64,000 nt of DNA from an uncultured Nitrososphaerales archaeon. Lineage in GTDB: Archaea; Thermoproteota; Nitrososphaeria; Nitrososphaerales; Nitrososphaeraceae. The notes under the pieces were generated by a model. It worked only from the letters and a program-made list of their open reading frames with translations, was not told the DNA's origin and made no database searches. Each line of letters starts with the position of its first letter. Within the stretch, counting starts at the first letter, position 1. The stretch covers positions 164,229-228,228 of the forward strand of contig CAVOHZ010000006.1 of NCBI GenBank assembly GCA_963695855.1, read 5' to 3'. The position numbers were made by a program, and so were the translations under genes. Of this stretch, positions 21,225 through 61,888 are shown piece by piece.

Positions 21225-21591
21225 ATGGGCATTGACACGTTCGGTTAGACAGAATAATGATTCTGTCATTCTCATGCTATATAGCCTAAAGTATATTTAG
21301 TTTTTTTATGAATGATTTCAATTTAGAAACTGTTAGTTTATCGCCTCTTTATCTGTATTATTGACTATTAATAAGTTAATAAAATAATAAATACGAAAAT
21401 CTATATTATAATAAGATAAAAATCAAACTTACTTCGTATTTTTATCGATTATGGTTATTGCAATAACATTTGGAATTAGCATTTCATCGTTTTTAAATAA
21501 TACTAATCCATTAGTATATGCCGTGGATAACTACAATTATTCTACTGTAGAAAGTAATACTCGATTATTTTTAGAGAGTCTACAAAAGAAT
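21225..21591 (+). repeat. About 360-bp direct repeat, copy A (att-like motif, upstream region and esterase 5' end)
   Basis: Aligns by eye with 31318-31676. Confidence 0.9.
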
Positions 21592-22491
21592 TCCGGTCCT
21601 CCCATGTATACTTTGGCACCCAATGAAGCTCGTAATGTACTGTCTGGTCTTCAGTCTGGTCAAATACAAAAACTTGCCGCTGAAATTGAAAACAAAACTA
21701 TTCCAGGCGGCCCTAGCGGTGAAATATCTATTCAAATAGTCAGACCCCAAGGTAGCAGAAACGAAACTCTACCTGTTGTAATGTACTTCCATGGCGGTGG
21801 ATGGGTCCTGGGTGGTTTTGATACTCATGAGAGACTCTTAAGGGAACTTGCTAACGGGGCACATGCAGCCATTATATTTGTAAATTATACTCGCTCCCCC
21901 GAGGCTAAGTATCCAATACCTGTAGTAGAAGGATATTCTGCTACAAAATGGATTACAGAAAATGGTCAAACTATCAATGTAGATCCTTCACGGATAGCTG
22001 TAGCAGGTGATAGTGCAGGTGGCAACATCGCTACTGCAGTTGCACTACTAGCCAAAGAACGGGGTGGAAATCCTATCACGTTCCAATTACTCTTTTACCC
22101 AGTCACAGATGCGAATTTTGACACTCCATCATATTTGAAATATCAAGAAGGTTACTTTCTTACCCGCGAAGCAATGAAATGGTTTTGGAATAATTATCTT
22201 TCAAATGATACTGATAGAAAAGAGCCAACTGTTTGTCCACTGCAAGCATCAGTTGAGCAGCTTAGTGGATTACCGCCTACACTTATCATAGTCGGAGAGA
22301 ATGATGTACTTCGTGATGAAGGTGAGGCCTATGCTCATAAACTGATGCAGGCTGGAGTTATAACCACTGCAACCCGCTATCTTGGCACTATTCATGACTT
22401 TGTGATGCTGAATCCAATTACCGATACTCCTGCAGCGAGGGGTGCAATAGACCAAGCATCTCATACACTTAGAGAAGTATTGTCAAAGTAG
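21451..22491 (+). CDS. HSL-family (Aes-like) esterase/lipase
   Basis: HGGGW, GDSAGG, DVLRDEG, HDF; N-terminal signal-like segment. Confidence 0.95.
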   Translation: MVIAITFGISISSFLNNTNPLVYAVDNYNYSTVESNTRLFLESLQKNSGPPMYTLAPNEARNVLSGLQSGQIQKLAAEIENKTIPGGPSGEISIQIVRPQGSRNETLPVVMYFHGGGWVLGGFDTHERLLRELANGAHAAIIFVNYTRSPEAKYPIPVVEGYSATKWITENGQTINVDPSRIAVAGDSAGGNIATAVALLAKERGGNPITFQLLFYPVTDANFDTPSYLKYQEGYFLTREAMKWFWNNYLSNDTDRKEPTVCPLQASVEQLSGLPPTLIIVGENDVLRDEGEAYAHKLMQAGVITTATRYLGTIHDFVMLNPITDTPAARGAIDQASHTLREVLSK

Positions 22492-22854
22492 AAATGAAAG
22501 TGAGGGAATGACAATTTCACTACGTGGTTAAACTTTTGTTAATTACGAAAATTTCCAGTTTTTTCATGCCTTTTTAAATACCCGTTCTCTTATCCACGGC
22601 CATATTATCTTTCTAATAATTATCATATCTGTACTCATCTCCGTACGCTTGTGCTTGTGCATTCGTAACTAATTGGTATGTTTAGAAGTATTATAGGTGG
22701 TGACAATATCGCTGCCAATAAAGACTATAAAACAAGTTTATTTTATCTAATTATATATCTAGATACATATGAAAACTAAAACATCTACTTCTAATGGATT
22801 TATAATGAAAATTATAAATGGTTATTATAATATATAAATTCTAGAAACAGAGTA

Positions 22855-23169
22855 ATGCTACTGAGAATGTTTTTAATTTTTAAGAAGTTTAGTATTTTAG
22901 CCATTTTTATTGTTCTCTTCATAGGATTATGCAGTCAAAATATTCAGGGTCAAACTTCAAACGCGTCAGATGAATTCGAAAGGATTTTGAAAATGCAGCA
23001 ACAAGAATTAGACGAGCAATTAAAGCAAACAACGGAAACAACACAATCCTATAATGTGACAGATGAATTCGAAAGAGATTTGAAAATGCAGCAACAAGAA
23101 TTAGACGAGCAATTAAAGAACACATTGAAATCCTTCAATGCCACAAATCCACTTGAGGAACTCAGATAA
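22855..23169 (+). CDS. Small secreted protein with a 31-aa internal repeat
   Basis: DEFER.LKMQQQELDEQLK twice, 93-bp period (22967 and 23060). Confidence 0.75.
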   Translation: MLLRMFLIFKKFSILAIFIVLFIGLCSQNIQGQTSNASDEFERILKMQQQELDEQLKQTTETTQSYNVTDEFERDLKMQQQELDEQLKNTLKSFNATNPLEELR

Positions 23170-23285
23170 AAATAATATTATACTGAAGTTTCATTAGTAG
23201 CTTTTATATAAATTAATTTTCAGAAGATTGACATTTTCGTTTATGTTTGTGTGTTTTGTTAGCGCAAGAACAGATTGTCATTCAA

Positions 23286-23375
23286 TGGATTGGACGGGAT
23301 TTGTTCGCTCGCTTCGACAGACGACGGACTCTGTTATATGCTTGTTTATTGTCAAAGATATCTTTAGCTTTCTTG
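23286..23375 (-). repeat. Degenerate att-like element (tRNA-Ala 3' end + conserved arm)
   Basis: TGGATTGGACGGGATTTGTTCGCTCGCTTCGACAGAC resembles 61737 onward. Confidence 0.75.
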
Positions 23376-23653
23376 ATTTGAATTATTGCTGACCAAAAGT
23401 AGAAATCTTACTTTATTTTTTATATTCTTATAAAATAATTTTCAATAATCAAAAAAGGATGTAAAAAAATTTAATTATCCTTACAAGTGGATTATCAGAA
23501 CATTGCGCAACAGTTATGACATTACCCTTACTGCCATCTGAAATAATCACAAATGATTTATTTATTAACAAACTATTATGCTCTTTGTATTTGGATTCTA
23601 CTTCAGTTAAAGCTTTAATGTTACAATTTATTATTTATGAATAGATAATACGT

Positions 23654-29786: not shown

Positions 29787-30540
<754 letters not shown>

Positions 30541-30734
30541 TGTAAAATAATCGGGAAATATTATTTTCTAATCTATACAGATTGTGTATGAATTTCTTAA
30601 TCCTTTGTGGCTCTCGATTTTGATTTCGGTGTTGTGATATTAGTTAGATAAATACATTAATTGCCTTACTATTGGATCTTGGTAAAATAAAATAAAATAT
30701 TTATTAATTTGTACTACTATAATTATAATAAAAT

Positions 30735-31031: not shown

Positions 31032-31317
31032 AGTTTTCCTTAATTCTTTTTTATAGTCTAAATTTATTATTGGAATAGTTGGTGAAAAAATTTAAAAAAC
31101 ACATACGCTTTAAGGGAAAAAGAAATTATCTTTCAGGTAAACATGATAGCATTGATGCACGATCATCTATAGTAGGTTAGTTACCAACCGATTCCCAACA
31201 TCTGATTTAAACAACTTTAAAATCAACAGAATCTAAAAAAAGTTTATTATATTTTGGTGAACAACAAATAGAAATTGAACATAAAAAACAGCGATCTTTT
31301 TTATCTAAATAATTTTT

Positions 31318-31676
31318 TGGACGGCAGGATTGACACGCTCGGTTAGACGGACGATTGATTCTGTCACGTTCTCATTTTATGGTCTAAAGCATTCAATTTT
31401 TTTTGAAACAATTCAATTTAGAATGTGTTAGTTTATCGGCTCTTTATCCTTATTATTACTATTAATAAGTTAATAAAATAATAAATACGAAATCTAATTA
31501 TAATAAGATGAAAATCAAACTTTGTATTTTTATCCATTATGGTTATAACGATAACATTTGGAATTAGCATTTCATCCTTTTTAAATAATACTAATCCATT
31601 AGTATACGCAGTGGATACCTAAATTATTCTACTGTAGAAAGTAATACTCGAATATTTTTAGAGTCTACAAAAGAAT
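31318..31676 (+). repeat. About 360-bp direct repeat, copy B, with a dead esterase 5' end
   Basis: Matches 21225-21591; ATG at 31539 followed by a stop and truncation. Confidence 0.9.
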
Positions 31677-32298
31677 GCCGTTAAAGAGAACTATTTGTTT
31701 ATTCACCTTCCAGGAATGTATACTAGTTTTTATATTTTTCTAGTAAAATTATTATTGACTGTATAGTTTATTTTTATTGATAATATGAATTGTTTTCTCT
31801 GTATTGATGTAAAATAAAAGTATTTTTGGTTCATTTTTAATTTTTAATATTCAGTTTTTTACCTTCAGATTTTGAATTTGTAATCAAAACTTCTATGTTT
31901 TCTTCGTATTCATATATTCTAGGAAGGTAATTTGTTGTTGCAATTTCTCGATCATCCATTTTATTCTAACCTAATGAAATTTGTAATTAAATCAGTTAGA
32001 CAAAATTTGTTAACTCTTTAATTTGAACCTTATTTTCTATTTTTTCATTATTGACAATAAGAAAATTTGATAAACTTGTGATGATAAGTAGGTTCGAATT
32101 TCAATCCATGATTCATTACTGAAAAAAACCATTCGAGAGTTAAAGACGGCATTGGAACGATTTATATTTTGATCAAGTTGAGGTCATAAATTCAATTATA
32201 AGGGATTTGATAAAGTTCTCTTGATATTATCTTTTTATATTCAAATAATTAAACTTTTAAATGATCGAAAATATTTTATTGTTTATGTATTTTCTAGA

Positions 32299-34438: not shown

Positions 34439-35962
34439 ATGTCAATGCAATTAGCTCAAACAGATTTAGATCTAAGCAAGAAATGCATGGAGATAGTGAA
34501 TGAAATAGAACAATCGAATATAAAATGGGTTCGATTGAATTTTTGCGATCCTTTTGGTTTTTTACAACAAATAAGTGTCCAAAGTGAAGAGATAACAGAA
34601 GATGCGTTTAAAAACGGTATTCCTAGGCTAGATGGAAGTTCGATAAGAGGGTTCAGAGAGATTCAGGAATCTGATATGCTGCTAAAGCCAGATCCAACTA
34701 CTTTTGCTGTTTTACCAAATTATTTTGATAAAGATCATCACAATTATAATAACACTTACAGATCAACAGCTGCCCGTATGTTTGTGGATATATATGAGGG
34801 CTTTAAGGGTACCCGTTACACTCGAGATCCTAGATTTATTGCACAGAAAGCTGCTCAAGTTGCAAAGGATAAAGGTTTTGAAAACAGCTATTGGGGTCCA
34901 GAATTGGAATTTTTTGTATTCAACAATATAAGACTGTTGCCAAATGCCATGTCAGCAGTTAATTGCTCAGGAGGTACTGGATATTCTATTGAATCTACTG
35001 AGGCTCCGTGGGGGAATGGTAATGAAGGTGCAGCAGGATACACAATTCCTTTCAGAAGTGGGTATTTTCCAGCGCCACCTGCAGATAGTTTGACGGACTT
35101 TAGGGATGAAGTATCCGACATGCTACGCCAATATTTTGGAATCACGGTTGAAGCCCATCATCATGAGGTAGCTACGGCGGGACAATGTGAAATACAAATG
35201 TCGTTTGCTAGTCTTGTTTCTATGGCTGATCAGGTAGTCACATACAAGAAAACAGTAAAGGAAACTGCTGCAAAACGTGGAATGGTAGCAAATTTTATGC
35301 CAAAACCGGTTGCACTAGATAACGGATCTGGAATGCATGTTAGCCAGAGTCTGTGGGGAAAGAAAAAAAATGATGAAGTAAATTTGTTTTATGATCCTGC
35401 TGATGAATATGCAGAGTTGAGTCAAACTGCATTTTACTATATAGGAGGGCTGATAGAACATGCTGAGGCACTATGTGCCATTACTAATCCGACAACGAAT
35501 TCTTATAGAAGGTTAGTGCCAGGATTCGAGGCTCCAATAAATGTTGCATGGAGCAAGATGAACAGGTCAGCAAGTATAAGGATTCCTGCTCACTTTAGAA
35601 AAATGGAAAAAAGAAAGAGGATAGAGTTAAGAACACCAGATCCTAGTTCCAATATCTATCTTGTTGAGGCTGCATTGTTACTTGCAGGTCTGGATGGAAT
35701 CAACAAAAAATCTTCAGTTCCAGAACCAGTAGATGCAGATATCTACAAGCTATCCGAAGAGAAAAAAACAGAATATGGAATTAAAAAATTGCCAACATCT
35801 TTGCAGGATGCCATAGAATCGTTAGAGAGTGATATGGAATTTCTAAAGCCGGCATTTACAAGTGATTTTCTAGAAATGTATTGTGATATTAAAAAAGATG
35901 AACATGTACAAGTTGCATCGATTCCATCGCCAAGAGAATTCTATATGTATGGTAACGTCTGA
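34439..35962 (+). CDS. glnA: Glutamine synthetase type I
   Basis: DGSSIRGF, GPELEFF, HHHEVATAGQCEI, FMPKP..DNGSGMH, NSYRRLVPGFEAP, NRSASIRIP, RIELRTPD. Confidence 0.97.
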   Translation: MSMQLAQTDLDLSKKCMEIVNEIEQSNIKWVRLNFCDPFGFLQQISVQSEEITEDAFKNGIPRLDGSSIRGFREIQESDMLLKPDPTTFAVLPNYFDKDHHNYNNTYRSTAARMFVDIYEGFKGTRYTRDPRFIAQKAAQVAKDKGFENSYWGPELEFFVFNNIRLLPNAMSAVNCSGGTGYSIESTEAPWGNGNEGAAGYTIPFRSGYFPAPPADSLTDFRDEVSDMLRQYFGITVEAHHHEVATAGQCEIQMSFASLVSMADQVVTYKKTVKETAAKRGMVANFMPKPVALDNGSGMHVSQSLWGKKKNDEVNLFYDPADEYAELSQTAFYYIGGLIEHAEALCAITNPTTNSYRRLVPGFEAPINVAWSKMNRSASIRIPAHFRKMEKRKRIELRTPDPSSNIYLVEAALLLAGLDGINKKSSVPEPVDADIYKLSEEKKTEYGIKKLPTSLQDAIESLESDMEFLKPAFTSDFLEMYCDIKKDEHVQVASIPSPREFYMYGNV

Positions 35963-36346
35963 TGGTCAGTTGCTATTATATTTCATTTAGTGTTGGATAA
36001 TTGATAGCAAATTCTCACATTTACTCGGAAAAGCCTTTGGACGTAATATCGACTGCAGAAAATGTTTACCGTCATATTTTTGGAAACGATAGGAACAAAG
36101 GGAGAAATTAGGGGAATCCCTGCTGCCTTGGGATATAGTGATTTTCATTTCATAATCTATCTCCATCCGATTTGCGTACATCCAGTATAGATGCAAGTTT
36201 GCAAGGAAATATACTGCTTGAGGGAATCGACAGAACTTATATGGAGATTATAGAGGAAATAGTTAATGAGTATGTTAGTGAGAACGGAATACACATGAAT
36301 TCGTCAGAAACTCAAGAGGTTATAAAGTCGATGGTAGGAGAATAAA
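35962..36346 (+). pseudogene. Probable relic of the FMN-binding glutamate synthase subunit (GltB2-like C-terminus)
   Basis: Broken frames read ENVYRHIF, EIRGIPAALGYSDFH, LSPSDLRTSSIDASLQGNILLEG; start abuts the glnA stop and the stop abuts the next ATG. Confidence 0.55.
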
Positions 36347-36348
36347 AT

Positions 36349-37257
36349 ATGTGTGGAATATGTGCCATTATGTTGGAAAATTGCAAAAAGGATTTTCCTA
36401 TTGGTTCTCTACTATATAAAATGATGGAGAGCCAGCAGATAAGAGCTCAGGATAGTACAGGTGTGGCCATCTTCAATAAAGAAACAAACAAAGAGTTTTA
36501 CAGAATAGATTACTATAGAAAAATTACAGGGACAAAATTACCTGTGAGACATAATGACAGTATATGCAATATCTTTACACAAAAAGTACCTAGCGAGAGA
36601 TTAGCTGAAACTTTGTATGAAATAAATCAAGATCCCAAAGCCGTAATAGCAAGTTTTGCAAAAGAAATGATCCTTATAAAAGATTTAGGACTTGTAAGGG
36701 ACCTTGATGCAAAATATAACATCAAGTCAATTCAGGGAACACATGGGATAGGTCACTTGAGGATAGCCACAAGCAGTAGAGTCACTCCAGACCATTCACA
36801 TCCATTCAGTACTACAGCGATTCCAGATATTGCTGTGGTACATAATGGCGAAATAACAAACTATTCCAAGTTAAGGTCTTCACTTGAGCTTAAAGGATAT
36901 CGTTTCTTTACTAGATGTGACTCAGAGGTCATTGCTGTATTCATTGCAGATCAAATTTTGAGACATGGCGATATAGAAAAGGCAAATTATGAATTTATAA
37001 ATAAAGCAGATGGCCCTTTTACATATATAGTTGCTACACCCGACTCTCTCGCCTTGGTTAGAGACAAATTTGGAGCAAGAAAAGCTATTTTCGGATATAA
37101 TCCAGGCAGTAAAGACTATCCATCTTTCTGGGCGATAGCTACTGATTTATCTGCTTTGGATTCTGTGGGAGCAACATATTACGTAGAAACTCCGCAACCT
37201 GGAAAACCAAAAATATTTTACAACCAGATGAAAATCAGACAATCTATTGCTAATTAA
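36349..37257 (+). CDS. Class II (Ntn) glutamine amidotransferase, GltB1/MgsA-like
   Basis: N-terminal MCGI, GIGHLRIATSS, HSHPF, VHNGEITNY, CDSEV, RDKFGAR. Confidence 0.92.
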   Translation: MCGICAIMLENCKKDFPIGSLLYKMMESQQIRAQDSTGVAIFNKETNKEFYRIDYYRKITGTKLPVRHNDSICNIFTQKVPSERLAETLYEINQDPKAVIASFAKEMILIKDLGLVRDLDAKYNIKSIQGTHGIGHLRIATSSRVTPDHSHPFSTTAIPDIAVVHNGEITNYSKLRSSLELKGYRFFTRCDSEVIAVFIADQILRHGDIEKANYEFINKADGPFTYIVATPDSLALVRDKFGARKAIFGYNPGSKDYPSFWAIATDLSALDSVGATYYVETPQPGKPKIFYNQMKIRQSIAN

Positions 37258-37510
37258 ATAATCAATCAATCAATAAAATAATTTATTTTTGAAATTTTTA
37301 ATTAAATTATTAATAAACTACTACTTGTCTTGTGCTCTTTTAAAATCTGTCTGTTTTGGTTTTGATTTATTTATTATGGTGAATAAAAAATATATATCAT
37401 ATCAATTTTCTACACATTTTAAAAATGTGTGCATATACGACTTTATCAATTTGTGTTAATAGAATAAAAGATATATCAGTAACCTTGCTAAATATTCGAG
37501 ATAAAATAAA

Positions 37511-38416
37511 TTGTATATTCTAGATATTGATGAAATAAGATCCATTGCGGACTCTATAAGGTCTAAGACATCAAATCTAGATGAACAATTTAAACGACTC
37601 AATTGTTTGTTATATGAAAAATATAGAATAGATCTCCCTAAAGGGCTAAAGAGGGCGTCTTTAGAAAAGTTTAAGGATATTATAAGTTCGCCATTGGTAT
37701 ACGAAAGAGCAGTAAATTCTATTCTAAAACGGAAAATAATCGAAGGCGAAAATAAAATTACTATAAAAAATCCTAAAGCACTTTATAGAATTGGAATTCT
37801 CAGTTTTAGAGAACCGATAAAACTAGATTTAATTGTAGAGGGGAGTGTTGGAAATTTTTTTGCAGCTGGTTGTAATTTTGATGGAACATGGACAGTAAAA
37901 GGTCATTCTGAAAATGGATTGGCTGATAAGGGTTATGCTGGTAAAATTGTTGTTGATGGTCTTGCTACAGAACTTGCAGGACAGAACAATCAGGCGAGAG
38001 AAGATAGTGATGGTGTTGATATTCTGGTCAGAAAGGGATGTATGGAAAGAGCTATGGGTCAGGCTAGAGGAGGGAGCTTGATAACGTTTGGCGCAGGATA
38101 TAATTCAGGTCTGTACATGTCAGGGGGAGTATTATTAAATTTGGGAGCACCAGGAAGATCCTTTGGCCCTGGAATGGTTGGTGGAGCTATTTATTCTCCT
38201 CAAGGTACTACCGTTGGCGAAGGTGCAACAATTCGAGATATGACTAGAACAGACTATCAAGTTATTTTATCTGTACTAAAAAAATTTGAAACCGAATTGG
38301 ACATAAAAGGACTAGATAATTTTTCCCCGGAAAATCATGTATTAAATATTACAAATAACGGAATTAGTGAAGAATATGATTTTAAAAATATTATAAAAAT
38401 TAGCGCAACAAAGTGA
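37511..38416 (+). CDS. GXGXG beta-helix protein (GltB3/FwdC-like)
   Basis: VEGSVGNFFA, ERAMGQARGG, GAGYNSGLYMSGG, GPGMVGGAIY. Confidence 0.85.
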   Translation: MYILDIDEIRSIADSIRSKTSNLDEQFKRLNCLLYEKYRIDLPKGLKRASLEKFKDIISSPLVYERAVNSILKRKIIEGENKITIKNPKALYRIGILSFREPIKLDLIVEGSVGNFFAAGCNFDGTWTVKGHSENGLADKGYAGKIVVDGLATELAGQNNQAREDSDGVDILVRKGCMERAMGQARGGSLITFGAGYNSGLYMSGGVLLNLGAPGRSFGPGMVGGAIYSPQGTTVGEGATIRDMTRTDYQVILSVLKKFETELDIKGLDNFSPENHVLNITNNGISEEYDFKNIIKISATK

Positions 38417-45729: not shown

Positions 45730-45793
45730 AAGGCATCCTTTGTTTTCAAATGAAATTAAGATTGTTTAGTATTCCAACGGCATCTTAGGTTTT

Positions 45794-46925
45794 TAATGAT
45801 GCTATTAGGTTAACAGTTATGTGAATAAATAGATGAGTTCATTATGTAAACTGTTTCTAGTTGTATTTGCATGTTTGACGTTGTAGTTATCAGTCCAATT
45901 AGATACTGCTTTTCCAATATCAGATTCATTTCTAAATGTAGAATTGTTTATGGCCTGTCTCTGTAACCACATCCATCTTACCTCTATCAGGTTCAGTTCT
46001 GGAGATCTGGTTGGCAGGAATACAGGAACTATTCTGGGATGATAACGTGTTATTGCATTTCTTGTCTTTTTTGACATGTGTATAGATGCGTTATCTAATA
46101 CAACAAATATTGTTTTTATACTGGAATCATATCTGGAATCAACTCTTTTTATAAAATCTATAAACTGGTCACTGGTCTTAGTTTTATAACAGTGAGTAAA
46201 CATTGTATCGTTGGTATGATCATAGATACCAAATACATTCAGAATACCTTTTATCTTCTGTGCCTTTTCTACCTTGGCTTGTGTGGAACACCATGATGGA
46301 CCGCCATATGTCTTTGCTGCAATAGAACCTTTCTCATCCTCATATAGCAAGATGGAATCAGAAGGTGTACTGTACCTTAGTTCTTCAATTCTCTTTTTTT
46401 CAATTCATACTCAGGGTCTCTGCTTTTACCCATTACTGTCTTTGAATTCCTCCATTCAATACCGTGTTTTACCAGCACATTCTTTACTTCAGTATGACTG
46501 ATACTCTCTACCAACTTCTTTTCCATTATGTATCCTGCAAGTACACGTAATGACCATGTAGAGAATTTCAGTTTGTACTTTCTCGGAGGATCGTTAGATG
46601 CTATCTCTACAATCTTGTTTTCTATATCCTCTGTAATCTTTTGAGCATTACGTACATGTTTTCTAGATATAATACCATCAATACCTTTTCCATTGAATCT
46701 GTGGATCCATTTACGTATGTTGTTATCATGATGGTTTGTAATTCTTCGTATCTCAGGTACTGTGTATCCTTCATCTCTAAGCAAGATCATTTTGGCTTGA
46801 TAACCTGATTCTGGATCGTTATCGAGCAACCAGTGAAGGTGATCCATTTCCTTTGTACTTATTTCTCTAAGATAGGTATTCCTCACAATATGTACGACGT
46901 GATGGTTAGCTAAAGCTGTTGTTAT
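45794..46925 (-). mobile_element. IS630-family element, two-ORF frameshift type
   Basis: HTH ORF 46377-46886 and DDE ORF 45817-46350 (YEDE, LDNAS, SPELNLIE) overlap at an A-run near 46395; ends approximate. Confidence 0.9.
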
Positions 46926-46988
46926 AAAATTGATTTGTCAAACTAATCATTATCATTTTACAAGAATAACTATATGGAATATTACAAT

Positions 46989-47262
46989 GCTGTTAACGAA
47001 AGATCCATAGCTGTGAACATTCTATTCTAACAATATATGTTATTGAGATTTGTCAGAAACAGGACATCCATTATCATTGCAATGTATTCTTTGTATTTGT
47101 ACTTTCTTCGTCTCAGTCTACGAAATACATACATCCAAAGCATTGAGGCCATTTATGGATCAAAATATAAGTCATGTCGCTGTTTGGGAGTGGATTCAAA
47201 GATTCGGTTCACCGCAAATCTATAACAAGAATAGAAGGATTTCGGCATCCATCATAGATTAA
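46989..47262 (+). mobile_element. IS6 left-end fragment
   Basis: MLLRFVRNRTSIIIAMYSLYLYF, as in the 56836 element; broken and truncated at ISASIID. Confidence 0.8.
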
Positions 47263-47566
47263 AATATGAAATTATCTTTTTTATACAAATAAATCCTTTA
47301 ATTCAAGCACGCATATAAAAAAAAGTATAATATTATGCTCAAATATGAATATAGATATGGAATATAGATATGATTAGGTCATATTTTTATTTATAAGTTA
47401 TTCTATTTATTATATTTCCTATTTCAAGATATTAGTGCAAATTTTGATCAAATGATAAATAATAATCAATTAAATACCTCCTATTTTGTACGGTCGGATT
47501 GTTAGCTGGTGCTGGTTATACGATAAAATAATCAAATACCATATTATTTAATATTATAATCAAGTA

Positions 47567-49276: not shown

Positions 49277-50099
49277 TTGTTACTTTATATTGTCACTGTT
49301 ATCATAAAGAAGAAAGAATTTTGAATGAAAATAGATTATGTATAGAAAAAATAGAACAAAGTTGATTTTATTAACTAATTATCAAATACTATAAGGTTAC
49401 CATGAAAAATATCCATGTTACCATAATTTGTAAAATGTTGTTATTTTTGCAACTTTTTTAATAACCAAAGATTAATTATGTTAACAAAAATGTTATCATG
49501 GATCGCATTTTGTTAATAAATTAGATAAAGAATTTGTAACCCTTTATTTTTGAGCCTAAAACCTATCGAACGTTTGACATTAAAAGCGATGCACTAAGCG
49601 GGTTAAAATAAAAAAGTTTAGTCATATAAAATTTAAAATATTGAGCTCCAATCAGTTCCGATATAAATAAAATATAAATAAAATATGAATAAAATATAAT
49701 GAGAATTCTTACTGTTAAAATTGAATACTAAAGATAGATGGGATTTCAAAATTTTCCTATTTAATCCCAAACACCGGTTGTCTTGTCATTAATTCTTCTT
49801 CAAAATAACAATGTCTATAACAAAACGAGTTACATAAAACGGATTCAAGTGTATTTATTATTATTGATCTAAAGGAGATTACATAGGCTATTACACTAAC
49901 GCTATTACACTAACCAGATTCCAAATGAGTTTACAGTAATAAGAATCACGAAATAAGTTTTAAGAATTCTAGCACATAGAAAAATATGATTATTATACAT
50001 GATATATTTTCCAAATGAATCATTGAAAACATTATGAACTTCACAAAAAAAATATTTACAACTAATTTACATGAGAGGGTTTTGATGACTATTGTGTAT

Positions 50100-51074: not shown

Positions 51075-52606
51075 GGCTCTGTTCCGATAAGCAGCATCAG
51101 GTATAGCTGAGAATGTTCTAAATATACTATGAAAATTAAATTTGAAAGAAATAAAACATCATCTTTAATTGTAATGTATTCTCTTTATCATACTTTCTTG
51201 GTCCCAGTCTACGAAATACATACATCTAAAGCACTGGAACCTTTTAAGGACCAAAAAAGAAGTTATGTTGCTGTTAGGAAATGGATTCATCGATTTGATT
51301 CATGCCAGATCTATAACAACCCTAGAAGAATTTCTGCATTCATAATCGATGAGAGAATGATTCAGATTGGTAATCAACATTTCTGGTTATGGTTTTACAT
51401 TGAACCTGTTCATAAATCTATACTTGGAATCTACATTTCTGAAGAAAGAAACATGTTTGTAGCAGAGAATTTTATCCCATCTCTTGTGTCCAGATATGGT
51501 AGACATACAGTTTACACTGATGGTGGTACATGGTATCTACAAGCCTGTAACTTTTTACATTTGAAACATAGATTACATTCTCATTTAGAGAAAAGTCTGA
51601 TTGAAAAAGTCATGCAGTATTTCATAGATAGGACAGAATGTTTTGATAATTACTATCCATGTTTAGAGCCTATCCCAAAAATAGATAGGAATATAGCTCG
51701 TTGGTTTCCTATCATATCTGATAATGTTTGAGTAAGAGTAAAAAATATGTTAGAACCATTACACGTATTCCTGATGACCTTTGGTATGAAATAAAAAATA
51801 TTTTACCAGATGAGAAACCAGATAATACCATAGGTAGACCAATTGTTCCTTATAGAAAAGTACTTGATGGTATCCTGTTTGTCTTGAGGATCGGATGTCA
51901 ATGGAAAATGTTACCCAAGGAATATGGTTCTGGTTCAACGTGCCACAGAAGATTTCAGGAATGGAGACAATCAGGATTATTTGACAAATTATGGACGAGA
52001 TTACTAAAAATATACGATAACACGAGAGGAATAAAATGGAACTGGCAATCACTTGACAGCATATCAGTAAAATCTCCTTTAGGGGGCGATGACTGGTCAT
52101 AATCCTACAGATAGGAGTAAATTAGGAAGCAAAAGACATATTCTAACAGATAAAGATGGTATTCCTCTTTCTACTTTTATAACATCAGCCAATACTCACG
52201 ATGTTACCGTTGCAACAAATACAATTGATAATATTGTTATCAAAAGACCATCGTCATCATCATCGATAACAAAATACAGAAACAACAACAATAACAAGAA
52301 GAAGAAGAAAAAGCAGAATCTATGCCTTGATAAAGCATATCATTCCAAAGAAGTAGAACAAGAAATGGTCAAAAGGGGATACATCCCACATATACGACAC
52401 AGAAGAGAAGAAAAGAAACTCAACAAGAAACATCCTACAAGAAGATGGGTTGTAGAGAGAACAAATTCATGGCATAACAGATTTAGGAAATTATTTACAA
52501 GGTATGAAAAGAAGGATGAGAACTATCTGGGTCTTGTACAGTTAGCAAATAGTATAATTGTTTACAGGAGGATAATTTTGGGATAGGCTCTTAACTTAAC
52601 AGCACC
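51075..52606 (+). mobile_element. Degenerate IS6 carrying a nested IS5
   Basis: Left end GGCTCTGTT, transposase 51129-51665 (IIDE, YTDGG, YYPC), right end TTAACTTAACAGCACC directly after the IS5. Confidence 0.85.
51666..52590 (+). mobile_element. IS5-family (IS427-like) element, two ORFs
   Basis: TIRs GAGCCTATCCCAAAA / TTTTGGGATAGGCTC, TTA flanks; ORFs 51728-52102 and 52089-52586 overlap at TTTAGGGGG (likely programmed frameshift). Confidence 0.95.
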
Positions 52607-52748
52607 CTACAATCCTTGTAATTCAACATCTAATATGACCAACTACTATATTCTTTATCCATACTCTAATTATCAGGTATTAGTTGTTCCAGATGTATAT
52701 TTCACAATAATTCTTTTATCAGGAAAAATAGTATATATTATTATAATT

Positions 52749-53528
52749 ATGTTTAAAATCAATAAATTTAGCAGAAATACCTTTGGTTTTCCTTATACAA
52801 AAGATTCTTTTATATTATATAAAAATGTAGCAAGACAATACAAAGACAAAAAAGTTCTTGCTTATGTTAATCATCTTATTCCATCAAAAATTAAACAAGA
52901 GATAATAACAATAAGCAAAGAAAATAATAATAACATACAAATTTTAAAACCACTTCTTGATTGGTTTAAGCAAGATTATATGAAATGGATGAATAGTAGC
53001 GACATCAGCAAAAACATCAAATGCCAAAATTGCAACATACCTTTGCATTTTAGCATAATCAAAGGTAATTCTTGGAAGCTAAGAATGAGTGAAGTTTATG
53101 AATGTCTGAAATGTAATTCAAAAATAGTATTTCCAAGATATGGCGAAATAAAAAGAATAGCAGATAACAGAATAGGTAGATGCAGTGAATGGTCAATGCT
53201 ATTTGGGGCAATTTTAAATTCACAATTTGTGGAAACAAGAATTGTACAAGATTATCTAGATCATTGTTGGAATGAAGCATTGATTGATGGCAAATGGATA
53301 CATATTGATTCTACGTTAGCCTATCCTATCTCTTTAAACCATCCTCATTACTATGAGAAAAATTGGTCAAAGAAATACAAGTACATTTTGGCTTTTTCCT
53401 ATAATTCTGTAGATGATGTTACTTGTGCTTATACCAATGAATGGCAAGATGTACTAAAAAGAAGGAAACAAGATAATAAGAAGGAAATTATTATGGAATC
53501 TTTTAAGATTTTTTATAGAGAAATTTAA
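52749..53528 (+). CDS. Peptide:N-glycanase (Png1/NGLY1)-like transglutaminase-fold protein
   Basis: LLDWFKQDYMKW, CQNC, EVYECLKC..FPRY, RIGRCSEW, DHCWNE, WIHID, PHYYEKNWSKKYKYILAF...DVT..Y. Confidence 0.88.
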   Translation: MFKINKFSRNTFGFPYTKDSFILYKNVARQYKDKKVLAYVNHLIPSKIKQEIITISKENNNNIQILKPLLDWFKQDYMKWMNSSDISKNIKCQNCNIPLHFSIIKGNSWKLRMSEVYECLKCNSKIVFPRYGEIKRIADNRIGRCSEWSMLFGAILNSQFVETRIVQDYLDHCWNEALIDGKWIHIDSTLAYPISLNHPHYYEKNWSKKYKYILAFSYNSVDDVTCAYTNEWQDVLKRRKQDNKKEIIMESFKIFYREI

Positions 53529-53990
53529 ATGTTGGATATTGATTTTAAATTGTTCCAATCGATCTATGTGTAACAGTAAATGTGGGTATGTTACCTTAAT
53601 ATATTTATGATGGAATACTTTTAAAAACAACCAACGCATTTAAAGATAAAATTGAAATTTGATAAAATTTATGAAAAACAAATTATTATCCTTCTAAATC
53701 TTTTATATAGATCAAAGTAAATTATTGACTAATGAAATGTAAAGAATTCTAAATTTTATTATTTATAAAATGATATTATTGCAGTTGATTTTTATTTACT
53801 TGAATTTAATGATATGTATTTTTTTGTTTGGCTTTTAAATTTTAAAAGTTGTTTCGTAAATTCTTTATTTTCACCATATACTTTTGTTAGATCATTTAAT
53901 ATCTTAACATTGATTTTAAATTTATTATATTATTTTTTATGTTGTTTCTACAAACTATCGAAATTTATTGTCAAGATACAGAATATTACT

Positions 53991-56414
53991 TTATTCCATT
54001 GATTTTTGTCTTTGCAGTTTATTGTTTCTTTTTATTTCTTTTTTCTTATTATTATTGTTGTCGTTGTTATTTTTTGATTTTATTTTGAATTTATTAGATT
54101 TCAGAGTCTTTTCAGGACTTTTTACAATGTAGATTAAAGGTAAATAAATAAAGTTATATATTAAAAGTATTCTAAATTTCTTTTGTATTTGTAATTGTAT
54201 ATTTAAAATAAAAAAGTAAAAATAAATGGTCATAGCTAATGAGAAAAGAAAAACCTGTAAATTAGTTTTAACCAATGTCAGTTTCTCTATATAAGATTTC
54301 TTTAACAATACTTTTGTATCTAACCCTTTCAAAGTATCTCTTACTGTTTTATATTTGTCTAGATCTTTTGAAAGAGCTTCAAGATAAGTTATCATATCAA
54401 AAGGCATATTGTTACATAAATCTGTTTTAAATATTTTTAAAGTCATTAGAATATCATTTTCATTTAATCCTGCATTAACCAAGTTTTGTAAAATAGAAAA
54501 TACAATGGGTTGAGATTCTTCTATTACCTTTCGTTTTGAAGATATTTCACTGTCCAGTATAGAAAGCTTATCTGTCTTTTCTAAGATATCTTGTTCAAGA
54601 GTTAAAAGAGTATACAAATGATCCATATATCTAAAGAATCGGATTTTGATTTGCTTTTTATTCAAACCAAATTTTTTAGAGACGTCTGAAAATGTTTTCT
54701 CTAGGTATTTAATATTAGAAGCATTAAACCCAAGGTTTTCCAACCTTTTCAAGGATTGAACTATAGGTTCATTTGATGTTATCTTGATTTCATAATTGTC
54801 ACTTATTGCATTTAAATCTTGGATATGTAATTCAAGTTCCTTTATTCCTCTCTCTTTATTTTCAACTAGATCTCTGTAATCATTTATATCTGAAAATTCA
54901 CTGAAGATTGTAAGAGGTTGGAAGTTCATCTCTTGAAAAATTTTTATAACATGTATTAAAGGCTCTAAAATTTGAATATCTATACCATTTTTCTTTAGTT
55001 CATCTTTTACATTTTTGAATAACAAAAAATCTTTTTTCTCATTTTGTATCTCTTTTCTAATAGAATCAAAATCATCTTTTAAATCTTGGATCTCTTTTCT
55101 CTTCCTTTCTTTTTCATGATCCAATTTTTGGATTTCGATTTTTCTGTAATATATATCTCTATCTAGTTTAATCCTTTCTTGCCTTCTTTTATTGATATAT
55201 GTTGGTAGATCATTTAATGAGGAGATATCGGGATAGTCATTTATCACTTTAGCCAGTCTTGCAATATCAGCAGGTAGTAATCTTTGCTCTTTACTTTCAT
55301 TATATAGTTTAGATCTCTTGCGAAATTAGAACTCATCAACATTCTACTCTTTATTAAATATATTATAAAATATCAAACTACAACACTATTCATTATCCTG
55401 TAATTCACAAGACCAGATACAATATCAGATACTGTATTATATCGCTTTAGTTTGTTCCTGTATCTCGTACCCATTATACCAAATTTCTTTATCCTGCAGA
55501 TAGTATGCTCTATTATGACTCGCTGTCTGGAATGATCTTTGTTATATCCTTTTTCTTCCTCCGTTAATTCAGTATTTCTTTTCTTCTTTACTGGTAGACT
55601 ATACTTTACAGTAGGAAAATCTTTTTCACATCCTAAATATCCTAAATCAAGTATATTTTCTACCTGTGATGGTGTTACAGGATTTTCTTTTTTGTAGACA
55701 TCGTAATCATGTCTCCTTCCTTTTTTGTATCCTGTCTTATGCAGAATCAAACCATGGCCATTTACCATATACTGAGTTTTGACTGTATGTCTTTTCTTCT
55801 TACCAGAAAAGAATTCTTTTTTTCTCTTTTTCTTCTTTGGTCTAGGTATCTCCTGTTCTGATGAATCTATAAATGCTTTGAATCCTGGAAAGTATAGTTC
55901 TACTTCTTGGACAGTTCGTAAGCGTCTTGTAACATTGTATAGTTTTTGGGGTAGTGGAATACAACTTTTTACTATTGGTTCCATGTAACGTATATCTCTA
56001 TGTACATTGCTTTGATCCAGATCAAATAGAAATCCAGAAAGCGAATTTGTTATGTATAGTTTGTAGTATACTAAAAGCATTAGAAATCTATCTTTTACTG
56101 TATGTTTGAAATGTCTTCCAGCTCCTATACCACGAGTTCTATCCTTCTTTCTTTTTGATAGACGTTTTATCTCATATTTTGGATATTTTGATTCTACTTG
56201 CTTACAAATGGAATCAAATTCAGATAATTCTAATCCCGTGAATGATCTAAATAATAATGGTTTTCTGGATAGTTTACCATAGTTTAACAATTATTAGAAA
56301 TTATCATGTAAATGTGGAATATAGCTGTAAGCTTTCTAATTATGCAAAGGATCTTTTGTTTAAAAAATAGTTGAGGTGGTCCTCATCAATATATAGTTGA
56401 TTGAGTATGTTAGT
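53991..56414 (-). pseudogene. Long coiled-coil protein with C-terminal TM segments, split by IS5 and 5'-truncated by IS481
   Basis: Excising 55311-56354 and one TSD restores TNILNQLYIDEDHLNYFLNK-LYNESKEQRLLPADIARLAKVINDY. Confidence 0.8.
55311..56354 (-). mobile_element. IS5-group (ISL2-like, DDE_Tnp_4) element
   Basis: TIRs AGATCTCTTGCGAAATTAGA / TCTAATTATGCAAAGGATCT, TSD TTT, intact ORF 55373-56290 (FIDSSE, DLGYLG, RVIIEH). Confidence 0.93.
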
Positions 56415-58195
56415 TGTTGTACTTACCAACATAGGTTACAATTTCATTTACCGAGATAGGTAACACTTCCTAATATGCTAGGAAGTGTATAAAAAATAGA
56501 ATTACAAACAAAATTTAATTTAATTCATGAGAAAGAGTCGACTGGAGATACTGTAACTAATATCTGTAATAGATATCATACATCTAGAAAGTCATACTAC
56601 AAATGGAAGAACAGGTACCTTGAGAATGGAATAGACGGTTTACGGGATAAAAGTAGGAAACCATATAATATACAACCTGGAAAAGTAACAAATGAGATAG
56701 AACAGGAAATATTGGATTTACGTGTAACAAAAAGATTTGGTTGCAATCGCATAAGGTTCAGGTTAAGACGACTGAATGATATCTCCTTCAGGTACAAAAA
56801 CCATCTACAAGATACTGAAAAGACATGGACTGAACGGCTGTGTTAACTTAAGACTGTTTCACCTCCAATTTTGAATACAATATTGTTTCTGATTTTTGCG
56901 TTATACAGATAAACAAATAATTTGATCCAATTGTATACATGCTATAGATCACAATTATTCTTACTCTTAACAAAACATGGATAGTAATCATCAAAACATT
57001 CTGTTCTATCCTTGAAATACTGCATTACTCTTTCGATAAGGCTCTTCTCTAAAGGTGAATGCAACCTATGTTTCAGATTTAAAAAGTTGCATGCTTGTGG
57101 ATACCATGTACCTCCATCTGTATACACAGTATGTCTTCCATACCTTGATACAAGAGATCTAATGAAATTTTCTGCTACAAACATGTTTCTCTCTTCTGAA
57201 ATGTAGATTCCAAGCACAGATTTGTCAATTGGTTCAATACAGATCCACAACCAAAAATGTTGATTACCAATCTGAATTATAGTTTCATCTATGATGAACG
57301 CTGATACTCTTTTTCTCTTGTAAATCTGCAATGAACCAAACCGTTGAATCCAATCCCATACAGCAACATGACTTCTTTTTTGATCCTTAAAAGGTTCCAA
57401 TGCTTTGGATGTACTTCGTAGACTGAGACCAAGAAAGTACAAATACAAAGAATACATTGCAATGATAATGGATGTCCTGTTTCTGACAAATCTTAACAAC
57501 ATATGTTGTTAGAATAGAACCTTCACAGCTATAGCTCTTTCCTTAAGTTAACAGGACCGACTGAACATACTAAGATGCAAGATCAGAAATAGAAAATGGA
57601 AAAGATTTGCAATGAAAAAACCAAATCAAATGGTACAGATGGATATACTGGGACCATTTTACCTTGAGAATTCTACTCAAAAAAACTATTTTATCAGTTG
57701 TGAAGATGACTGTTCAAGAAAGGTAACAAGTGACTGGTCTGAAAGAAAACGAAGTGTAGATGTACTACAGGTACTGGAAGACTACATAGTAGAGAATGGT
57801 AAACCTCACAAAATAATGCATGATAATGGTAAACAGCTTACATCCAAAATATTCAGACGTTTTCTACAACGTAACAACATTAAAGATAAATCCATACCTG
57901 CCAGATATCCGCAACTACAGGGTAAAATTGAAGCATATAACAAGATAGTCAAAAATGAATTTTTGGGAATAGAAAATATTTCCAACAGAGAAGAAGGAAA
58001 GAGAATGTATTCCATGTTTGTCAAAGCATACAATGAAACAAGAGAACATGGGGGAATCAATGGTCACACGCCATGTGAAATGTTTCCCATGAAAGGAAGA
58101 TTAAATAGTTGTAAGAATATCAAAACAAATAAGCAGATAAAAAGTGTTACCCATGTTGGTAAGTGAATTTGTTACCTATCTGTGTAAGTACAACA
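56415..58195 (+). mobile_element. IS481 copy 3, interrupted by IS6
   Basis: Near-identical to copy 1; +1 G near 56791; flanks GTTAGT and CCTAAA do not match. Confidence 0.93.
56836..57558 (-). mobile_element. IS6-family element nested in IS481
   Basis: TIRs GGCTGTGTTAACTTAAG / CTTAAGTTAACAGGACC, 8-bp TSD GACTGAAC, transposase 56942-57502. Confidence 0.95.
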
Positions 58196-58856
58196 CCTAA
58201 ATAACGGATCTATCGTATTTGCTTGTAAATTAGATTCTCTAATATATGCAATCGCAATCGCAATTTCAAATAACAAAAACATAATGGCAGTTGGAGATTC
58301 TAATAGCGGTGTTTATGCGATGAATATAAACCTATTTAATTTTCTATTTTCTATTTCTGTATATTTTGAAAATTTAGCTTTTGTAAATATTCATCATATG
58401 TCGATAAACTATTCTTTTCTTTTTTTAAAATAAGTATCCACAAAATAGTAACCCTGAGAAAGAAAATTTTGTCTAGAATTTCACTAAAAACGAATTTAAT
58501 CCTATGTTATTTTTTCTAATATTATGGGTATTTGAAATTTTTAATTGAGATATTACAGGATTGAAAGATATTATAATAAGTGAATAAAAAGGGAAACGAA
58601 TAAGATGGAATGAATTTCATTCGTATGCAGACAGAAATGATATACATCCTTTTAGTAATTTTATACCCTTTTGATGTTATTTTATAATAAGTTCTATTAT
58701 CTGGAACTATCTCTTCTATATATAGAGCCTTTGAATTAGGAGACCTCCATTTCGATCTTAATTACAAAAGAATTAGTAATACGAAGTTTTCCAAATCTTT
58801 TTTATTGTTTTTAAAAATTACAAATATTTTTATAATTACTGAAATTAATTATATAT

Positions 58857-59246: not shown

Positions 59247-59322
59247 AGTCTAACAAAGTATGGTAAAGAAGCTGCTACTATAATTTACTATCATTTTTTT
59301 GAAATGTTTACCTATTAAAATA

Positions 59323-61491
59323 TTATACAAGATAAAAGTTTGTAACCCCAAAATTTTGCCATCCTGAAATATACTTTGCAGAAAGTTTTTCAGGATCATT
59401 TAAAACATAATGTCTTGCACTAACAGATTTAAATCGTCCAGCTAAAACTTCAGCTTCATCAACTTCAAATGCATTCTTAAATCGAAGTACATTAGATCGT
59501 TTGCGTAATTAGATAAAATCTATTATATATCTTGATGATGCCTTATATTGCTATCATCTTCTGTTGTGTATTATTCGATAATTTACTAAACCAGAAACAA
59601 TATCTGACATTGTATCGTATCTTTTCAATCTGTTTCTGTATTTGTTTCCCATAATACTAAATTTCTTTATTCTACATATAGTATGTTCTACTATTACTCT
59701 CTGTCTACGATGTCTTTTGTTGTACATTTTCTCTTTTTCTGTAAGGTCAATATTACGTTTCTTCTTTACAGGTAATACTGCTTTGATATCTGGAAAATCT
59801 TTTTCTACTCCAATATAACCAAGATCAAAATAGTTTTTTACATCTTTTGGTGTTGTCGGATGAACATCTTTGTATACTGTATAGTCATGCTCTCTTCCTT
59901 CTTCATGGTTTGATTTATGTAATATTTCTCCTTTTTTGTTTACCATATACTGTGTCTTTACAGTATGTTTTTTCTTTTTTCCAGAATAGTACTCTTTTCT
60001 TCTTGTTTTGTCTGTAGGTACTGGAATTTCCTGTTCTGTTGAATCTATAAATGCTTTAAATCCTGGAAAATACAGTTCTACTTCATCTACTGTTCTTAAT
60101 CTTCTTGTTACGTTGTATATTTTTTGAGGTAGTGGAATACAACTTTTTACTATAGGTTCCATATATCTTACATCTCTATGTACATTGCTCTGATCCAGAT
60201 CAAACAAAAATCCTGTTAATGCATTGGTTATGTATAGTTTATAGTACACAAGAAGCATAACAAATCTATCTCTTGTTGTATGTTTGAAATGTCTTCCAGC
60301 TCCTAAATTTCTTTTTCTCTTTCTTTTTGATAGACGTTTTATCTCATATTTTGGATATTTTGATTCTACTTGCTTACAAATAGAATCAAACTCAGATAAT
60401 TCCAATCCTGTAAAGGATCTAAACAATAACGGTTTTTTAGATAAACTATCATAATTGAGCAAATTTATGAGAAATTAGTATAGAAATGAGGAATATAGCT
60501 GTAAGCTTTCTAATTATGCAATAGATCTATTGTAGTGAATTTTTCTTAATACTATATATGCAATACCTGTTTCTCTTTTAAGAATTTTATGAGCAGCCTG
60601 TATATCATAATAGTCAAACCTTTCCAAGCTTCTTAGTTTCTCCCAGTATCGTGTAGGAAGTATTGTTGCTAATGCTTTTTTCTGACCTCTGGTCCAATTT
60701 ATCGCAATTACAGTGAGACCATTCTTACAGGAAGCAACATGCAATTTATCGCATTGACATCCAAAGGATTGTATACAAATTTCTCTTTGTTTTATGTAAG
60801 AGATTTCTGATTCACGTAAACCTGAAAATAATCCAATTCTACAAGTAAAGCCAATATCTCCAGTAATTTTCATTATTTTTGAAATTTTTTCTTCAATAAA
60901 TTGAGGACTGACAAGATATATACGATCCTTTTGATCTAAATCTCTATTAAGATCGTATCTTTTAATAATCCTTGCAATTAAATTCTTGACCTCATTGTTT
61001 CCATATCTGTATGCATAATAATCTCCAAATCTTTTGATTGCTTGAAGAATCCATGATCGTTTATGTTTCGCTAATTTAAATAAATCTACGTCTACTGTGG
61101 GACAAAAAAAGATATCTACGTATCTAATATAATAACTATGATAGCATTTTGCTGTATGTGGATGGTATCTTCCCAATAACCAATTAAGTAAATCTTGTTC
61201 GTCTACTTGCTTCCAAAAGTCAAACCTTTGGCCAACTTGTAATAATGCCAAACTTGTTGTTTGGTATTGTATATTCATTACTTGCACTTGCTCGTCATCT
61301 GATAATCTTCGAAGTTTACCTTCAATTAATAAATTACATAAATCCTTGAATGTTTTGCAGTGCAAATTATCGAGTTGGCGATTAAAAAGATCCACTTCAT
61401 TTTTCTTTATACTAGCACCAACGCTTATCCAATTTTTCTTTACCTCTTTATTGCTTTTTAATTCTGTTTTAACCGAAAGCACTATATTCAT
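59323..61491 (-). pseudogene. Tyrosine recombinase/integrase split by an IS
   Basis: SGLRESE, GQKKA, LRKIHYN | VLRF...LAGR...ARHY; the C-terminal 59323-59493 is in frame after IS removal; likely start at 61491. Confidence 0.88.
59494..60528 (-). mobile_element. IS5-group (ISL2-like) element
   Basis: TIRs AGATCGTTTGCGTAATTAGA / TCTAATTATGCAATAGATCT, TSD ATT, intact ORF 59554-60462. Confidence 0.93.
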
Positions 61492-61537
61492 TTGGTAAAA
61501 CCAAATCATAAACATTATGAAAACCCAATCCATAATT

Positions 61538-61690
61538 CTTAAGAACCTAAATAATATATTAAGAAAAAATAGCAATAATTAAGAAAAATCACCGCGATTG
61601 TATTGGCGCACTAATATTATCTTAAGAAAAATCGTAAGAATGTACAAAATAAATGTATATAAAAAGATTATAAATTCTTAAGAAAAATAT
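61538..61690. repeat. TTAAGAAAAA direct repeats between the integrase and the att site
   Basis: Copies near 61559, 61579, 61622 and 61678, partial at 61539. Confidence 0.65.
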
Positions 61691-61736
61691 AATAATAATC
61701 GGGATTTGAATGCGAAACCTTTCGATTGAAGTGCGA

Positions 61737-61757
61737 TGGACTGGGCGGGATTTGAAC
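61737..61757 (-). other. tRNA-Ala 3'-end fragment (att core)
   Basis: Minus strand GTTCAAATCCCGCCCAGTCCA: T-loop plus acceptor strand CCAGTCC-A with U70, the Ala identity element if paired with GGGCTGG. Confidence 0.8.
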
Positions 61758-61888
61758 GCTCGGTTCGACAGACATTTGATTCTGTCATATTCTTATATTA
61801 TATTCCAAGAGATATTTAGCTTTTATTATTAGAAGCATATTTTAAAATATATCAAAATCAAACTTTGGTTAATAGATTGTCATTTATC

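Follow-up and report, generated by a model that had tools for sequence, protein, structure and literature searches.

A tRNA-Ala(CGC) gene as a probable long-used docking site for stacked integrative elements in an ammonia-oxidising archaeon

The cryptic integrated elements described in thaumarchaea lie in the 3′ part of tRNA genes, between short attachment (att) sites with a median length of 17 bp, and are themselves invaded by insertion sequences (IS) (Krupovic et al. 2019, PMC6563490). As far as the main text of that paper goes, 39 of the 68 thaumarchaeal elements have tRNA targets, tandem arrays are said to arise when tyrosine-recombinase elements use an att site again, and the term 'tRNA-Ala' was not found. 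Here we analyse the last 64 kb (the window, 64,000 nucleotides) of contig C6 (CAVOHZ010000006.1) from the 3.55-Mb genome of an uncultured Nitrososphaerales archaeon (GCA_963695855.1, hereafter G000), which encodes an archaeal AmoA, so the host is an ammonia-oxidising archaeon. Very probably, the window lies downstream of a single tRNA-Ala(CGC) gene that has long been used as a docking site; its repeats would be att junctions, with a newer element, E0, next to the tRNA gene, stacked on an older one, E1, behind it, and the other junctions would be relics. The sites are called J1 (61757), J1b (49590–49602), J2 (31336), J3 (23306) and J4 (21238). Coordinates without a prefix are those of the window; others carry the name of the contig and, for relatives, of the genome.

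ARAGORN found zero tRNA genes in the window. A sequence-only reading of this DNA had predicted an intact minus-strand tRNA-Ala beyond position 64000, and it is found there, in the predicted orientation, by way of a bridging contig. An intact tRNA-Ala(CGC) gene occurs in the same assembly at C1:75909–75981, and window positions 61737–61757, read on the minus strand, match its 3′ end (C1:75961–75981) at 21 of 21 nucleotides. The 12.2-kb contig C9 joins the two: C9:1–5425 equals C1:81464–86897, the right end of C1, at 99.61% identity, and C9:10436–12248 equals C6:228228–226416, the reversed right end of C6, at 99.89%. This places the tRNA gene about 18.2 kb away beyond position 64000 (10,916 + 5,010 + 2,243 bp). 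The overlaps connect the plus strand of C1 to the minus strand of C6, giving the tRNA gene the same orientation as the repeats, as in a tandem array. E0 is then the stretch of about 18.2 kb from C1:75982 through C9 to 61758, flanked by perfect 21-bp direct repeats. It encodes an intact 393-residue integrase, a PadR-like protein, a truncated second integrase-PadR module, IS fragments, and GNAT, cyclase/receiver, Alba and ZIP genes. E0 is a cryptic integrated element, and may be a composite rather than a single one.

The distal end of E0, J1, is where the stacking shows. The G017 genome carries an occupied site on its contig C31: a tRNA gene, an integrase gene 87% identical in nucleotides to that of the window, about 6 kb of further DNA, and then an arm with a degenerate core; the DNA upstream of the tRNA gene is syntenic with C1, and the flank beyond the arm matches C2:118346–118999 of G000. 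G017 and the window are alike from the first base of the 21-nucleotide core onwards, and upstream of it the body of the G017 tRNA gene takes the place of the window's arm. In sister genomes, then, this integrase directly follows the tRNA gene, and the core edge is the precise point at which homology to the window ends. Position 61757 is accordingly the hybrid junction of a tandem array, in which the newer E0 supplies the left arm and the older E1, beyond the core, the right arm and the integrase. The proposal that tRNA-Ala-targeting elements accumulated in tandem is borne out at this position by its arm-core-arm structure.

In the mechanism that we propose, each element would carry an archaeal tyrosine recombinase, with a catalytic domain of the SSV type, just inside its tRNA-proximal end. 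The integrase would recombine the 18–21 bp of identity, from the T-loop to the 3′ end, between the attP site of the element and the tRNA gene; this would rebuild the tRNA at attL and leave the left arm and core at attR. Insertion sequences and duplications would then have reshuffled the DNA between the relics, which now includes housekeeping genes.

The left arm is the most distinctive part of these junctions. At J1 it holds a 6-bp inverted repeat, GACAGA/TCTGTC, at 61767–61786, and a box, AAAGCTAAATAT, at 61812–61823, about 25 nucleotides upstream of an ATG and reading towards the core. An alignment of 22 arms from relatives gives the same layout genus-wide, namely the box, a spacer of about 25 nucleotides, ATG-ACAGA...TCTGTC, 10 nucleotides and the core, with an almost invariant hairpin stem. 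Allowing up to two mismatches, CGCTCGGTTMGACAGA matches the window four times, at 21238, 23306, 31336 and 61757, always on the plus strand; shuffling gave an expectation of 0.00, and none of 100 shuffles held any match. All four sites have the GACAGA...TCTGTC inverted repeat and align over about 100 bp, which confirms the four co-oriented copies first noticed. The accompanying view that each copy adjoins a tRNA 3′ end holds for J1, with 21 of 21 nucleotides, and fails for the other three, where that end is degenerate. Genome-wide, an exact-style pattern found five matches, the four window sites and C2:118403; a profile built from the 22 relatives' arms found six, namely the four window sites, C2:118341–118427 (93% identical to the left arm of J1) and a weak match at C8:577776–577862. 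With only one or two copies outside the window, the motif is rare and clustered rather than scattered.

Such numbers bear on the idea that the motif is the end of a self-transposing, tRNA-derived dispersed repeat, resembling a short interspersed element (SINE) or a miniature inverted-repeat transposable element (MITE). The genome is indeed rich in IS and MITE copies, and a MITE-like repeat abuts the arm at 61813, as it does in G017. Against this, there are just six profile matches in 3.55 Mb, four of them within 40 kb and all co-oriented with the tRNA gene; other MITE copies stop exactly at 61813, without the arm; and neither inverted terminal repeats nor target duplications were seen beside the arms. 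We consider this explanation very improbable. Two further readings of the arm were discarded. It does not form, with the core, the 3′ half of a split tRNA gene, as the would-be T-stem, GAGCG/CCCGC, does not pair. Nor does a long gene run from the arm into the integrase: the frame is only 35 codons long at J1 and 20–25 in two relatives. Rfam gave zero matches in the window at the gathering level.

The preferred account, in which the arm belongs to attP, agrees with its distribution. The loci analysed from relatives comprise the best match per genome and a few larger stretches rather than all matches. An arm query matched 22 of 24 sister genomes, and the arm itself was covered at E <= 1e-5 in 19 of the 24, which bears out its interpretation as an attP signature. 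The integrase family was found in 14 of 24 same-genus genomes and in none of 16 genomes from other families of the order. Among 11 loci of relatives, seven have an intact tRNA-Ala(CGC) gene directly before the integrase, one has tRNA-Gly(CCC) and three have no tRNA. These loci contain 22 distinct arm sites: nine have the order arm, core, right arm, with cores showing 1–3 mismatches; at the remaining 13 the flanks are unrelated and the cores show 2–14 mismatches. In most relatives the arm-side core differs at the second T-loop base, leaving 18 nucleotides of identity. From its position and conservation, the left arm, with its inverted repeat and AT-rich box, is predicted to be the integrase- or accessory-factor-binding arm of attP.

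Right arms vary more. Each element type has its own short repeat between core and integrase: GTTGACC behind the tRNA gene on C1 (six copies in 150 bp, against 0.6 expected per 12.9 kb), TTCTTAAG at 61536–61684 (five of its seven window matches) and a GTTAACA-like repeat at 49350–49589. These are putative arm-type binding sites. Twelve nucleotides behind the J1 core, at 61700–61724 on the minus strand, the tRNA-Ala 3′ half recurs in decayed form, with 21 of 25 nucleotides identical to tRNA positions 39–64. The same stretch, which contains GAAAGGTT, follows the core in five of seven tRNA-linked sites and nine of the 22 arm sites of relatives; this second copy suggests an older att site with a longer core. 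Contigs from four metagenome runs matched the window in short pieces, some of which stop at 61713 or 61733 and continue into other sequence; this fits variable right-arm partners, the pieces being too fragmentary to count.

The sequence-only reading had placed an integrase beside the best-preserved copy of the motif. One is present there, and the IS that interrupts it had been overlooked. The open reading frame (ORF) at 60514–61575 (minus strand) matches PF16795, 'Archaeal phage integrase', at 19.7 bits, below the 27-bit cut-off, and a PHROG integrase family at E 6e-7. A 1042-bp IS, which has five further copies at 99.4–100% identity (three on C10 and one each on C3 and C8), separates the two pieces of the gene, so the integrase beside the best-preserved junction is broken. 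Its paralogue at C1:76232–77413, directly behind the tRNA gene, is the intact 393-residue protein of E0; it scores 30.5 bits with PF16795, above the cut-off, and is followed by the second, truncated copy. A structural model of this protein (mean pLDDT 69) gave as its top Foldseek match the catalytic domain of the SSV1 integrase (3vcf_A; E 1.3e-3, probability 1.00, TM 0.65 on the target), ahead of Xer, Cre and lambda Int; no match reached E <= 0.001. Sequence searches of the PDB with a single integrase and with a seven-sequence profile matched no chain and gave nothing useful, and a search of genome contigs for related loci, with the C1 integrase as query, gave no confirmed relative. The aligned integrases share the blocks GLRE, K, LRK.HY and AGR.K....HY.

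Behind its right arm and split integrase, E1, which spans 61757 to about 49.6 kb, carries a PadR-like gene, nested IS copies, a 418-residue ORF and a transglutaminase-like gene. G014 has the same integrase and transglutaminase genes behind its tRNA gene, the transglutaminase gene (93% identity) lying 3.9 kb behind tRNA-Ala and its integrase on contig C12. The distal end of E1 is likely J1b, a fifth, arm-less junction that had escaped the first inspection; the integrase-bearing element formerly drawn from 31.3 to 61.7 kb was therefore not upheld, its boundary being this motif-less junction at about 49.6 kb. The right arm behind J1b is of the type that G014 has at attL, and the orthologous junction in G014:C12 bears the window-type right arm instead; with arm types swapped in this way, right arms have been exchanged between species.

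Beyond J1b the case for separate elements weakens. The window from 49349 to 14290 is colinear with a single contig of the sister species, G014:C54, at 85–94% identity, in the order thiamine pyrophosphate (TPP) enzyme, HerA-like ATPase, GXGXG, GATase, glnA, Lrp, J3, alpha/beta hydrolase, J4, ferredoxin, 340-residue ORF, P450 and alcohol dehydrogenase. The two differ by an 11.4-kb insert in G014, by IS copies, and by 41626–47456 and 31091–31743, which are present in G000 only; lineage-specific DNA is confined to E0, the J2 block and the Nramp-patatin block. A contig of a further relative, G019:C48, is 93% identical across J3. The glnA gene exists in G000 as only two copies, in the window and on C8, that encode an identical protein, so it is a housekeeping gene and not obvious cargo. 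The notion that the segments between motif sites are successive elements thus found no support, given this colinearity, the nature of glnA and the lack of integrases at J2–J4; synteny of the intervening genes in relatives, which the sequence-only reading had itself named as evidence against it, is what we find from 49.3 to 14.3 kb. Synteny breaks at motif sites were likewise expected, and one occurs at the core edge of J1 by comparison with G017; J3 and J4 lie in DNA that is colinear in G014. No end-to-end overlap joins G014:C12 to G014:C54, so that a connection of the tRNA locus with the colinear block is unproven in that genome.

What, then, are the distal sites? J3 and J4 stand at orthologous positions in two other species, G014 and G019, which makes them old relics common to at least three species. 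Together with the orphan C2 site, they appear to be attR relics of much older integrations, made before at least three species diverged. The farther a site lies from the tRNA gene, the more its core has decayed (J1 perfect, J1b and J3 partial, J4 worst), a gradient that fits accretion from the tRNA side. J2 is a different case. As the sequence-only reading had cautioned, the copies near 21225 and 31318 are not independent: 21231–21595 and 31329–31680 form one duplication, 87% identical, and the block is absent at that position in G014. J2 thus appears to be a later duplicate of the J4 block, specific to G000; its left flank, 31236–31331, resembles the right arm behind the C1 tRNA gene.

The J2/J4 duplication, the many recent duplicates and IS copies in the window, and the closeness of the C2 and J1 left arms would also fit a history in which segmental duplication and IS-driven rearrangement made every arm site other than J1 from a single old attR region. 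However, the DNA on either side of J3, J4, C2 and J1 is unrelated between these sites, other species have orthologues of both J3 and J4, each with a decay pattern of its own, and relatives have arm pairs 0.6–2 kb apart. We judge this history unlikely and retain separate integrations for these sites. As an observation in its own right, such pairs are co-oriented (G017:C31:21113–21211; G014:C54:31500–33642), and short inter-arm 'units' are common in the genus.

A further question is how relics so old have kept their arms. One answer would be that the arm is a domesticated regulatory module, an outward promoter across the core, kept by selection wherever it landed. In most of the 22 arms the box lies about 24–26 nucleotides upstream of the ATG that starts the hairpin; the same box stands about 23–25 nucleotides before an ATG at the unrelated loci C2:121148 and C8:194371; and in G000, G017 and G012 the C2-type attR is followed by a co-oriented ORF of 177 residues. 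The reading frame that opens at the arm's ATG is, on the other hand, short and variable, ending early in two relatives besides the three lengths given above; the arm has no Rfam match, and no RNA run is listed among the sequencing runs; and the box overlaps a repeated sequence of about 36–45 nucleotides, of which it may be merely the end. Domestication is, on this balance, an unlikely account of the arms.

A related idea leaves the att reading in place. The left arm might in addition carry an outward archaeal promoter, with the box AAAGCTAAATAT and a leaderless start at the hairpin, and so act as a junction-dependent expression switch, a tentative suggestion that we regard as rather unlikely. 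Some bacterial integrative elements have promoters that work in the circular form, which is comparable. If the suggestion were true, the circular or tandem-junction form would drive the integrase behind the core, a terminal attR would drive the host ORF behind the site, and the survival of the arm at orthologous sites long after the decay of the element would be explained.

Several points weigh against accretion of elements at the tRNA gene as we describe it. The C1-C9-C6 link consists of overlapping contig ends only, with eight mismatches and nine gaps over 5.4 kb and no spanning read seen; another part of C6 is, moreover, paralogous to C9 at 97% identity. E0 has no replication, conjugation or virion genes, and its second integrase-PadR module is truncated. 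No integrase remnants were found near J2, J3 or J4, or near J1b, by tblastn at E values up to 10 with both integrase types. Simple accretion would not be expected to place the sole glnA type and genes conserved across species between J1b and J3. The orthologous terminal attR and its 177-residue flanking ORF sit on C2 and not at the end of the window series, from which it follows that the array was broken or rearranged. In G012, a region that aligns to the C2-type attR and the 177-residue ORF, and which the arm profile did not recognise, leads directly into GXGXG, GATase and glnA; since the gene order around attR and glnA differs between species, the region has been rearranged repeatedly. Lastly, no excision product or transcript was seen; none of the sequencing runs contained at least half of the window's sampled words (0.31 in the best DNA run).

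Table 1. Features of the window, ordered from the tRNA-proximal side
Feature	Position	Strand	Evidence or remark
E0 distal end: MITE-like repeat (61813–62223), ZIP transporter gene, further repeats	61813–64000		Continues into C9, then C1
Left arm (armL, P-arm), attP family	61758–61834	−	Conserved in 22 relatives' arms
J1 core, exact 21-nucleotide tRNA-Ala(CGC) 3′ end, T-loop to discriminator	61737–61757	−	Second direct repeat of E0; 21/21 identity
Right arm (armR) of E1	61576–61736	−	Aligns to G017 tRNA-integrase spacer; TTCTTAAG repeats
E1 integrase, N-terminal part (archaeal tyrosine recombinase), ends after LRKIHYN motif	60530–61575	−	Pfam, PHROG, G017 identity
IS, 1042 bp, DDE_Tnp_4 transposase, within integrase gene	59488–60529	−	Pfam and copies
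Displaced E1 integrase C-terminal piece with AGR.K....HY motif (presumed catalytic Tyr)	59371–59487	−	tblastn with G004 integrase and three-frame translation
PadR-like gene after E1 integrase; integrase-PadR module also on C1	58857–59246	−	96% amino acid identity to C1:78551–78937
E1 cargo block: IS5-like element, transglutaminase-like gene ('Png1' in the sequence-only reading), 418-residue ORF	51665–55310		C10 copy
J1b, partial core, 13 nucleotides, 3 mismatches to tRNA 3′ end, without armL hairpin	49590–49602	−	Orthologous junction at G014:C12 ~320
Orphan GTTAACA-type right arm, like G014 attL arm, no integrase behind	49350–49589	−	81% identical to G014:C12:10943–11238
Nramp, 760-residue patatin-like, IS630-like block	41626–47456		Insertion in conserved block, absent from G014 contig; no att motif at ends
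J2, arm and degenerate core	31323–31389	−	Within block 31091–31743, absent from G014; duplicate of J4 block
J3, arm and degenerate core, old att relic	23287–23382	−	Orthologous in G014:C54:31500–31574 and G019:C48
J4, arm and most degenerate core	21223–21308	−	Orthologous in G014:C54:33547–33642

The features are collected in Table 1, and several further observations concern their surroundings. The E1 cargo block (3646 bp) is 100% identical to C10:1053367–1049722, which is either a very recent duplication or an assembly repeat. At 56406–58210 the IS copies are nested, an rve-type IS with copies at 4923–5990 and elsewhere being interrupted by another IS at 56836–57558. Within E0, C9:7974–10527 resembles C6:93939–96495, a 97% paralogue with a second ZIP gene copy nearby (C6:110138–111051), and that region may be another E0-like remnant. 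The sequence TCTAATNATAAAAGCTAAATAT recurs in G000 at C2:121148 and C8:194371, about 23–25 nucleotides before an ATG that opens a shared sequence, and may be a common promoter module or the end of a repeat. Window positions 34445–37714, with glnA and GATase, are duplicated on C8 (491084–492641 at 99.9% and 495035–496768 at 96.5%), where a 2.4-kb insert lies between the two genes. The HerA/DUF87-like ATPase (817 residues, 38857–41310), which occupies the same position in G014 and is present in several genomes of the genus, has weak PHROG matches that include terminase large subunits. Near the start of the window, at 400–1822, a sulfatase gene is apparently broken into at least two ORFs (692–1291 and 1463–1822, minus strand).

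The locus offers a worked cross-species example of the collection, stacking and decay of integrative elements at a single tRNA gene in soil ammonia oxidisers. The genus-restricted integrase lineage, the 18–21-bp core and the attP arm could serve to locate such elements, and to set their limits, in fragmented metagenome assemblies. Old att scars that persist across speciation and flank housekeeping genes are, for their part, a warning against calling all DNA between att sites an island.

Among known integrases, that of SSV1 (PDB 3vcf, 3uxu) is closest to those found here: it provides the best match to the predicted fold (E 1.3e-3) and, in PF16795, the Pfam family of the intact C1 paralogue, with conserved sequence blocks. 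In SSV1, attP lies within the integrase gene, which integration therefore splits. Here, the integrase ORFs are whole behind the tRNA gene in C1 of G000 and in G004 and G003, with attP some 160–250 bp upstream of the gene, and sequence comparison matched no PDB chain. Williams is said to have distinguished, in 2002, a T-loop sublocation class of integration sites; the identity block at this locus, which runs from the T-loop to the tRNA 3′ end, is of that kind.

As in the tandem arrays for which Das et al. (2013) is cited, the newer element lies between the intact tRNA gene and the older one, the internal junction has an arm-core-arm structure, and the repeats are co-oriented; the present array differs in having only two integrase-bearing units, one of them broken, and distal 'units' that are unrecognisable and hold conserved host genes. 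With the cryptic elements of PMC6563490, as its main text presents them, the locus shares the host group, a tyrosine recombinase, a site in the tRNA 3′ end, short att sites (18–21 bp here), sizes below 20 kb, the lack of signature virus or plasmid genes, and IS inserted into elements. It differs from them in an integrase lineage found in one genus only among the genomes searched, and in being a stacked, largely decayed array whose relics are common to several species. The mechanism is thus a textbook one and the kind of island already known; what this locus adds is an arm conserved genus-wide, right arms that species have exchanged, and att scars still present beside housekeeping genes after speciation.

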